Origin: a virus
Reading direction: 5' to 3' (one strand)
Length of the DNA stretch: 14,470 bases
IMG/VR virus record: IMGVR_UViG_3300044981_000256
Below the pieces are notes generated by a model that worked only from the letters and a program-made list of their open reading frames with translations, had not been told where the DNA came from and searched no databases. Shown piece by piece: positions 11,378-12,379 of this stretch (within the stretch, counting starts at the first letter, position 1; every line of letters starts with the position of its first letter). The position numbers were made by a program, and so were the translations under genes.

Positions 11378-12379
11378 ATGACTAGGACAAACGCTGCGCT
11401 TGTCGGTTGTGGAGTTGGGGACGCACTTGGGATGCCCTTCGAAACTCTTGGTGAGAAAGTGCATGAAGGGTTGCAAGACTGGGACAGCTCATACCGGGCT
11501 GGTACATGGCATAAGCTACCTCCAGGTCACTACACCGACGACACGGAGATGTCTATTTGTCTGGCACAGTCGCTGATTGCTAACCGAAATGGTTACAGTC
11601 TTAACGACGCCGCCCGGAGATATTTGGCTTGGTCCCAGTTAACTCCACACGGCATGGGTGACACTACCCGGAACGCTATGGTGAAGCTAAAACAAGGTTG
11701 CTCACCAGAGTCTAGCGGTATCTGGTTTGAGGACCCGAATGCTGTTGGCAGCGGCCCTCCTATGCGAGCATCGCCCCTAGGTGTTTTCTATCATGGCCGG
11801 TATGAGATGACTCGTGCTTGCTATAGGGATGCTTACATAACGCATCATAGTCCCGAGGCTATAGTTGCAAGCCTAGCAGTAGCTACTGCGGTTAGAAATG
11901 GGCTCTATGGACATGAGTCAAGGACAATTCTTAAAATAGTGGTATCTGCTGTAGAGGCTGCAGAACGAATCCACGGGCAAACGCGTGTCGGAGACGATCT
12001 TCGAAAATTCTGCACTTATTTGCCATTGTCCGAGTTCTCGCGGCGGGGAAACGCACGGTCAATTACAGTAACAGCGCTGCATTTTGCTCTTACAGCAACT
12101 AATTTTCGTGATGGTGTAATTGCAGCTGTCAGATTTGGGGGTGACTGTGATACCCGTGGAGCTATTGCAGGGGCGATTCTTGGGGCTCGGTTCGGCCTAG
12201 AAGGTATTCCTGAAGAATACAAAATAGGACTACTTAATTTCGAACAGCTTCGTAAGCTCGACGAGGATCTACCCTGTAAGCATCCAGATAGCTACATTGA
12301 ACATGAAGGTATAACAGGAACGTTAGGACGGGTTATCTGTCCAACCTGTGGTCACGAACGAGAGTGGGACGCGTACTAA
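11378..12379 (+). CDS. ADP-ribosylglycohydrolase (DraG/ARH family) with a C-terminal CPTCGH zinc-ribbon-like tail.
   Basis: Family signature N-terminus: GCGVGDALGMPFE (metal-binding Gly-rich loop), HYTDDTEM (TDDT motif), and a GGDCDTRGAIAGAILGA (GDxDT) C-terminal metal site. Confidence 0.85.
   Translation: MTRTNAALVGCGVGDALGMPFETLGEKVHEGLQDWDSSYRAGTWHKLPPGHYTDDTEMSICLAQSLIANRNGYSLNDAARRYLAWSQLTPHGMGDTTRNAMVKLKQGCSPESSGIWFEDPNAVGSGPPMRASPLGVFYHGRYEMTRACYRDAYITHHSPEAIVASLAVATAVRNGLYGHESRTILKIVVSAVEAAERIHGQTRVGDDLRKFCTYLPLSEFSRRGNARSITVTALHFALTATNFRDGVIAAVRFGGDCDTRGAIAGAILGARFGLEGIPEEYKIGLLNFEQLRKLDEDLPCKHPDSYIEHEGITGTLGRVICPTCGHEREWDAY

Follow-up and report, generated by a model that had tools for sequence, protein, structure and literature searches.

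A 333-residue open reading frame (ORF) in a 14,470-nt viral sequence (IMG/VR virus record IMGVR_UViG_3300044981_000256, referred to at its full length as the window) encodes an ADP-ribosylhydrolase (ARH) with intact catalytic motifs, a confidently predicted ARH fold and a C-terminal Cys/His tail that is private to this lineage. Its relatives form a clade that, as far as can be seen, is specific to huge phages, and we lean towards a role for the enzyme in erasing ADP-ribose marks that another party, most plausibly the host, sets during infection. The interval of interest corresponds to exactly one ORF, running from an ATG at 11378 to a TAA at 12377-12379 (Table 1). Its product spans the ADP_ribosyl_GH profile PF03747 from end to end (all 287 profile positions; E = 1.7e-61; 208.8 bits, cut-off 26.2) and matches PHROG 6572, annotated 'ADP-ribosylglycohydrolase', at E = 1.8e-38. 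Searches against solved structures returned MJ1187 (6e-27), Thermus 2cwc (3e-24), DraG (3e-22), Tri1 (3e-18) and ARH3 (~1e-12). A first-pass annotation of the window had named this family and proposed PF03747 as the check; the full-length match bears it out, and the identification lies far above chance level.

A catalytic ARH domain from a huge-phage clade

Two alignments were used to assess the catalytic residues, one of 29 clade sequences and one of 96 sequences reaching down to 25-30% identity. E22, T53, D54, D55, D151, T155, H156, D256, D258 and T259 are invariant across the clade; in the broader alignment E22, D54, D55, T155 and D256 remain invariant, and T53, H156, D258 and T259 are conserved in at least 90% of sequences. 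These positions correspond to the traits that define the superfamily, namely the T-D-D and D-x-D-T halves of a binuclear metal site, a glutamate in the first motif and a catalytic 'TH' motif (PMC9503650), and the metal-site, first-motif Glu and TH residues match their DraG counterparts residue by residue. The DraG/ARH signatures reported by the first-pass annotation are thus present, intact and conserved in both alignments, and the catalytic Asp/Thr motifs, whose possible loss on careful alignment that annotation had allowed for, are retained.

An AlphaFold2 model built from the 96-sequence alignment agrees with this assignment, with a mean pLDDT of 92.7 and confident placement of residues 1-298. 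When the model was searched against the PDB with Foldseek, the top 50 matches were ARH-fold proteins without exception, and the best of them include 2cwc, 1t5j, the Listeria immunity protein 8za7, DraG, Tri1 (6dre) and ARH3. Family, fold and intact motifs together point to a catalytically competent member of the ARH/DraG superfamily, which presumably depends on metal for activity.

Table 1. Positions of the ARH gene, its parts and other features of the window.
Feature	Position	Strand	Basis or remark
(TGCTGC)n tandem repeat, 31.7 copies, contig start	1-190	n/a	repeat scan of window
tRNA-Glu, anticodon TTC, amid short minus-strand ORFs	682-754	(-)	window left end
RtcB RNA ligase	2617-4743	+	PF01139, E 6e-116
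Calcineurin-like metallophosphoesterase, between RtcB and MVP	5389-6156	+	partial similarity to ApaH, bacterial Pnkp phosphatase domain, NinI-like phosphatases
MVP-like gene (major vault protein), 2.5 kb upstream of ARH	6262..8880	+	MVP_shoulder E 3e-26; Vault_3 E 3e-11
ADP-ribosylhydrolase ORF, 333 aa + stop	11378..12379	+	PF03747 full length; AlphaFold2 model; Foldseek top matches ARH-fold
Catalytic ARH domain, aa 1-298, all-alpha	11378..12271	+	pLDDT at least 88 per 10-residue block; TM-score 0.83-0.85 vs 2cwc, 1t5j
Motif GDALGMPFE, aa 14-22, with D15 and E22	11417..11443	+	E22 invariant; pairs with Glu of DraG 'GDALGATVE'
Motif TDDTEMS, aa 53-59, binuclear metal site half 1	11534..11554	+	same string in DraG
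T155-H156 'TH' motif	11840..11845	+	invariant, 29-sequence alignment
Motif GGDCDTRG, aa 254-261, metal site half 2 (D256, D258, T259)	12137..12160	+	aligned with GGDADT of DraG, MJ1187, Thermus ARH
C-terminal tail, aa 299-333, putative small zinc-binding element	12272..12376	+	only in window protein and P0001
167-aa ORF, start 3 nt past ARH stop, translationally coupled	12383..12886	+	context; no conserved partner

Within the superfamily, the window ARH is closest to the group of MJ1187 (1t5j) and the Thermus protein 2cwc. These two rank first both by sequence (98 and 89 bits) and by structure (target-normalised TM-scores of 0.85 and 0.83); they carry the same metal-site motifs at 27-30% identity, and both lack the Cys/His tail. 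We know of no physiological substrate established for either, so they offer no function to transfer to the window protein. DraG itself (3g9d, 2woc) shares the TDDTEMS and GGDxDT strings, the first-motif Glu and the overall fold, and presumably relies on the same binuclear metal chemistry, but the window protein scores 117.2 bits against the 337.05-bit cut-off of the DraG equivalog TIGR02662, and neither the window nor the related loci showed a DraG-like context (draT, nifH, PII or nitrogenase genes). ARH3 (ADPRHL2) likewise shares the fold and the metal-site and Glu residues, although in sequence it matches weakly and over part of its length (E 1e-11 to 1e-12, 21-24% identity).

The window very probably derives from a large phage. 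Its DNA had no match among 50,697 phage records; a near-identical sister contig (L001, 81.8 kb) carries a lysozyme/peptidoglycan-binding gene. ARH relatives that share 45-61% identity come from metagenomes only, on contigs reaching 502 kb that display dense, short, co-directional ORFs without Pfam matches, together with homing endonucleases, primase/VapE and comparable genes, and across the 37-61% range the contigs measure 180-570 kb and are mostly viral-classed or phage-like. More distant relatives occur on 21 IMG/VR viral contigs, mostly of 186-572 kb, and in published huge-phage assemblies. By comparison, the ARHs of the GenBank phage collection are 25-38% identical to the window ARH, and when one genome from each of 185,579 species of bacteria and archaea was scanned with motif seeds, the best ARH reached 36%, on small contigs of metagenome-assembled genomes, with all others at or below 33%.

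ARHs of phages and giant viruses are already catalogued (PHROG 6572, BFVD, PMC9503650). Structural matches in BFVD that are annotated as ADP-ribosylglycohydrolase come from Myoviridae, Aeromonas phage Aeh1, Marseillevirus, Pithovirus and Mimivirus, and ARG domains have been found in ~5% of jumbo phages (Iyer et al. 2022, PMC9503650). The window protein resembles these viral ARH/ARG domains in superfamily, in fold, in its sporadic accessory status within very large genomes and in the usual lack of a coupled transferase.

A lineage-specific Cys/His tail

Beyond the catalytic domain, residues 299-333 (LPCKHPDSYIEHEGITGTLGRVICPTCGHEREWDAY) hold C300, H302 and H308 followed by a knuckle, C321-P-T-C324-G-H326. 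Among 120 retrieved homologues the only other carrier is P0001, a 99%-identical copy present on strain contigs L001-L003. The extra tail to which the first-pass annotation had drawn attention is real and absent from all other relatives. The closest relative in the phage database, LR745208, at first appeared to carry it as well, but the tblastn span (1-328) had crossed a stop codon and the protein ends at the domain boundary. Between the window and P0001 the genes are 98.6% identical at the DNA level, with 14 nucleotide differences (10 synonymous, 4 nonsynonymous), one of which falls in the tail. An exact-match search of IMG/VR with the tail DNA found nothing.

In the AlphaFold2 model the tail has a pLDDT of 40-57 and forms a short beta hairpin near the CPTCGH knuckle. 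Its sole Pfam match, to the CPxCG knuckle of Zn_Ribbon_YjdM, is below threshold (E = 0.026); with this sub-threshold knuckle match and a low-confidence model in the region, we do not assign the tail to a known zinc-finger family. The tail, a recent addition specific to the lineage, is probably a small zinc knuckle and may contribute to target binding.

Other members of the family bear C-terminal extensions that are unrelated to the window tail. Three clade ARHs end in short Cys-rich tails, CPWAGCSTPLDCDG...H in P0048 and P0051 and CGSC in P0061; P0113, a 444-aa homologue at 27% identity, carries an extra C-terminal domain of ~150 aa that looks macrodomain-like by eye. With such varied additions in the family, C-terminal extension seems to have arisen repeatedly. 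Within the window, two small plus-strand ORFs of the same gene string as the ARH (12888-13100 and 13495-13728) show CxxC...CxxH-type patterns, and the first of them ends in SCPAHGEDEW, which bears a loose resemblance to the CPTCGHEREW of the ARH tail. No family could be assigned to either ORF by profile search.

Partner genes and the likely role of the enzyme

In toxin-immunity pairs an ARH accompanies an adjacent ADP-ribosyltransferase (ART), as with Tri1 from a Serratia type VI secretion system (6dre) and Listeria Lmo0067 (8za7), structural neighbours of the window ARH that erase toxin-borne ADP-ribosylation, the logic that we propose below for the window enzyme. No ART gene was found beside the window ARH. 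Profiles from Pfam, PHROGs, NCBIfam and PADLOC matched no ART family among the scanned window ORFs (the small upstream ORFs by sequence profiles only), and none appeared among the precomputed Pfam matches of the genes called on the sister contig L001. The translationally coupled 167-aa ORF downstream was considered as a candidate and rejected: its AlphaFold2 model (pLDDT 77) shows a helical hairpin and a small SH3/CAP-Gly-like beta barrel, which is not an ART fold and had no PDB match at E <= 0.001, and its homologues, about ten on phage-like contigs (P0123-P0131), occur without an ARH beside them. With no ART matches and a non-ART downstream ORF, the ARH is an orphan hydrolase within the visible sequence. 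The 167-aa ORF and its strain homologue P0122 (L001 8650-9093) differ by an in-frame deletion of 20 aa (TIKSIEIDYLMRDWSVYVEF), which takes out a portion of the predicted beta barrel.

Comparison across phages did not reveal a conserved partner either. ORFs within 10 kb of the ARH were compared by all-vs-all BLASTP at 22 distinct loci and by phmmer at 25 loci, and no neighbour is common to the 25; just the HNH, Thg1, Ro60 and PTH2 families recur, sporadically. Around 80 cellular ARH homologues, conserved neighbours reflected lineage-specific synteny only. PADLOC defence models matched neither the ARH nor its neighbours, and a promoter/terminator scan gave counts equal to the shuffled-sequence level.

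Because no ART lies beside the ARH and its neighbours vary between phages, the most likely role is that of an eraser of extrinsic marks. We hold, with slightly more confidence than doubt, that the enzyme is a metal-dependent hydrolase of ADP-ribosylation set by an extrinsic enzyme, most plausibly a toxin or defence ART of the host. In such a mechanism, two divalent metal ions would be held by T53/D54/D55 and D256/D258/T259, and a water molecule activated by the metals together with E22 and T155-H156 would cleave the bond that joins the ribose C1'' of ADP-ribose to its acceptor, so that the ADP-ribose leaves in free form and the acceptor returns to its unmodified state. The mark would have been set on a macromolecule by another enzyme during infection, likeliest a host ADP-ribosylating toxin or defence enzyme, and its removal would amount to counter-defence. 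The reasoning follows Iyer et al., who argued that ARG domains prefer macromolecular ADP-ribose conjugates and that, where no transferase is coupled to it, a hydrolase works on the marks of an extrinsic enzyme, while themselves noting the lack of direct evidence (PMC9503650). A counter-defence role is plausible.

Three observations weigh against this proposal. First, the visible genome amounts to 14.5 kb plus ~8 kb from the sister contig, and a transferase of the phage itself could lie elsewhere. Second, DraG Asp97, which we located by comparing 2woc (PVDVG) with its D97N variant 2woe (PVNVG), aligns with Gly92 of the window ARH, where the clade consensus is PHGMGG; the position is Gly in Thermus 2cwc and Asp in MJ1187. 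With the Asp97 equivalent absent, DraG-type arginine chemistry is not to be assumed. Third, in two cultured jumbo phages, Xanthomonas phage XbC2 (L158) and Serratia phage BF (L159), annotated ARHs 26-30% identical to ours are encoded ~4 kb upstream of genes for a NadR-type nicotinamide-nucleotide adenylyltransferase and a PnuC transporter (locus positions ~12700-14600). This neighbourhood differs from the RtcB, MVP and peptide deformylase genes of the window and hints that some phages, at least, may use the enzyme in metabolism and not to erase marks.

The alternative that survives best, though we consider it unlikely, makes the ARH an antidote or timer for an ART encoded by the phage, limiting or reversing the modification of host proteins or shielding phage proteins in the manner of known ART-ARH pairs. 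Phages do deploy such transferases: T4 Alt, ModA and ModB modify host proteins. ART-ARG pairs exist in some Aeromonas phages (PMC9503650), ARTs are common in jumbo phages (PMC7824862), and the immunity ARHs 8za7 and 6dre are among the structural neighbours of our model. Set against this are the lack of an ART match in the window and on L001, the non-ART fold of the downstream ORF, the absence of a conserved neighbour at the 25 ARH loci, and a score of 81.4 bits against the Tri1 equivalog NF041672, whose cut-off is 490.

Somewhat less probable is a place for the ARH in an RNA-repair and translation toolkit, in which it would strip ADP-ribose from RNA phosphate ends or from sites on RNA or translation factors, RtcB, Thg1 or peptidyl-tRNA hydrolase would then complete the repair, and the zinc-knuckle tail would bind nucleic acid. 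The gene content of the window invites the idea, since RtcB, the phosphoesterase, the MVP homologue and a peptide deformylase lie on the same strand within 9 kb, and in other huge phages Thg1 (4 loci), Ro60/TROVE (4) and the peptidyl-tRNA hydrolase PTH2 (5) occur no more than 10 kb from the ARH, which abuts suppressor tRNAs in several loci and has tRNAs nearby at 11 of 24. ARH3 and an ARH-like Streptomyces enzyme, moreover, clear ADP-ribose from RNA and DNA phosphate ends (PMC11833690). These associations are nevertheless sporadic and variable in position and strand, in part go back to common descent within two related groups of phages and lack a proper background rate; the same genes also occur near MVP loci without an ARH, at 13 of the 24 ARH loci the 10-kb flanks are free of tRNAs, and other close relatives sit amid unannotated small ORFs. 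We give a similarly low probability to the broader formulation, in which the ARH would belong to a huge-phage set comprising RtcB, Thg1, Ro60/TROVE, PTH2, suppressor tRNAs and peptide deformylase, joined in this lineage by MVP, and would erase ADP-ribose placed by host defence enzymes on RNA ends, tRNA or translation factors, making the ends ligatable or functional again. If the RNA/translation-repair proposal were true, the window ARH would stand as the first phage enzyme devoted to undoing ADP-ribosylation of RNA or of the translation apparatus.

It is more doubtful still that the substrate is a small ADP-ribose derivative, such as O-acetyl-ADP-ribose, an immune signal of the glycocyclic ADP-ribose type or another product made from NAD, whose hydrolysis would blunt NAD-based immunity or recycle material for NAD synthesis. 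ARH3 has the relevant chemistry, cleaving serine-linked ADP-ribose, O-acetyl-ADP-ribose and ADP-ribose on phosphate ends of nucleic acids (PMC9503650, PMC11833690), viral ARG domains could target soluble derivatives (PMC9503650), and the proximity of NadR and PnuC in XbC2 and BF fits. The enzymes of those two phages are, however, the distant relatives described above; no NAD-metabolism gene was found in the window or among the annotated genes of the 18.6-kb sister-contig locus, and abundance patterns argue for macromolecular conjugates (PMC9503650).

The two functions put forward by the first-pass annotation, removal of base-linked ADP-ribose placed by DarTG or CmdTAC and a vault-associated, PARP4-like partnership with the MVP gene, are both very improbable. 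DarTG and CmdTAC are genuine anti-phage ADP-ribosylating systems (PMC11833690), but the known erasers of thymidine- and guanosine-base ADP-ribose are macrodomain (DarG) or NADAR proteins, and the window protein has the ARH fold instead. In the enzyme panel tested in PMC11833690, guanosine-ADP-ribose was reversed by NADAR alone, with the ARH-like enzyme inactive on it, and the 2'-OH RNA modification made by RhsP2 was reversed by PARG alone; nor, as noted, did any PADLOC model match the ARH. The suggestion that ARH enzymes erase ADP-ribose from nucleic acids thus stands for phosphate ends, as with ARH3 and the ARH-like enzyme, and finds no precedent in PMC11833690 for DarT-type base or Rhs targets.

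The vault analogy fares no better on comparison. In eukaryotic vaults, MVP is accompanied by PARP4, TEP1/TROVE and vault RNA, and the ARH and MVP genes of the window are indeed 2.5 kb apart on the same strand. That adjacency is confined to the window and the 99%-identical strain contigs: neither MVP nor any other window neighbour was found within 10 kb on either side at other ARH loci (0 of 24), and no ARH turned up by tblastn or profile search (E <= 1) at other phage MVP loci (0 of 44; 868 kb in total). Pfam found no PARP/ART family or TROVE domain among the window ORFs, and Rfam no vault-type or Y RNA in the window, where its only matches were the tRNA-Glu and, below threshold, the TGC-rich repeat. 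With the adjacency private to the lineage and no PARP/ART, TROVE or vault RNA in the window, the analogy is unsupported; a hydrolase, moreover, performs the opposite of the PARP4 reaction. Between MVP and the ARH lie five or six small, unrelated ORFs as well as two gaps of 250-370 nt, and the ARH belongs to a distinct, tightly packed and partly overlapping gene string (9752-14183) that ends with the peptide deformylase. No functional connection between the ARH and the neighbouring MVP gene could be demonstrated.

Other features of the window and related loci, and implications

Phage MVPs have been reported previously (bioRxiv 10.1101/2023.11.10.566534), and MVP-like proteins on viral contigs number 42 IMG/VR loci (34-61% identity) plus three huge-phage assemblies in our searches. 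Bacterial MVP homologues are linked to RtcB-centred RNA repair and not to ADP-ribosylation, according to Burroughs & Aravind 2016 as cited in PMC13404743. In the window, the RtcB gene lies 1.5 kb upstream of MVP; neither RtcB nor any conserved neighbour was found at the 44 other phage MVP loci, whose flanks we examined over up to 10 kb (17 kb for L027 and L028). PTH2 lies immediately downstream of MVP at four of these loci (L117-L119 and L121), and Thg1 upstream of it at L130 and L142.

The RtcB gene is split by an insertion of ~330 aa (~2845-3828) between ...GVDIG and CGMAAV..., beyond which the Pfam match picks up again at position 49 of the profile. The insert begins with Cys and ends in ...GN just ahead of another Cys and, judged by these features, looks like an intein; no Pfam intein/Hint model matched it. 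PHROG 32482, annotated as PhoH-like, matched residues 75-405 of the RtcB ORF. The phosphoesterase and RtcB resemble a pair for RNA end healing and sealing. At the left end of the window, the (TGCTGC)n repeat yields a Leu-rich pseudo-ORF (6-251) and a sub-threshold Rfam match to isrG (58 bits; gathering score 100).

Several related loci carry translation-associated features next to the ARH. Suppressor tRNAs (anticodon CTA or TTA) abut it in L008 (10930-11018), L010 (10928-11004 and 11263-11336) and L007 (11146-11223 and 12367-12443), as well as in L013, L021 and L023; these huge phages therefore probably recode a stop codon, and ORF calls made there with table 11 may be fragmented. Ro60-like genes (TROVE + vWA) lie near the ARH in L008 (8178-9863, minus strand), L010 (6147-7847, minus strand) and L025 (5092-6774, plus strand), and in L008 and L010 a PTH2 gene occupies the side of the ARH opposite the Ro60-like gene. 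On a 100-kb viral contig, L015, a transfer-messenger RNA (236-582; tag ANEQFAMAA) and several tRNAs fall within 10 kb of the ARH.

Collectively, the novelty is modest and consists of a well-populated clade of huge-phage ARHs, a private Cys/His tail and a negative result for MVP, the vault-protein link having failed on comparison. The clade and the variant tail add to a known family and bring no new principle. ADP-ribosylation is a weapon of both bacteria, through toxins such as DarT, CmdT, Rhs and Tre, and phages, which makes its erasers candidates for counter-defence. With catalytic residues intact and no partner transferase found, the huge-phage ARH clade provides reasonable candidates for biochemical screening against the lengthening list of ADP-ribosylated substrates.

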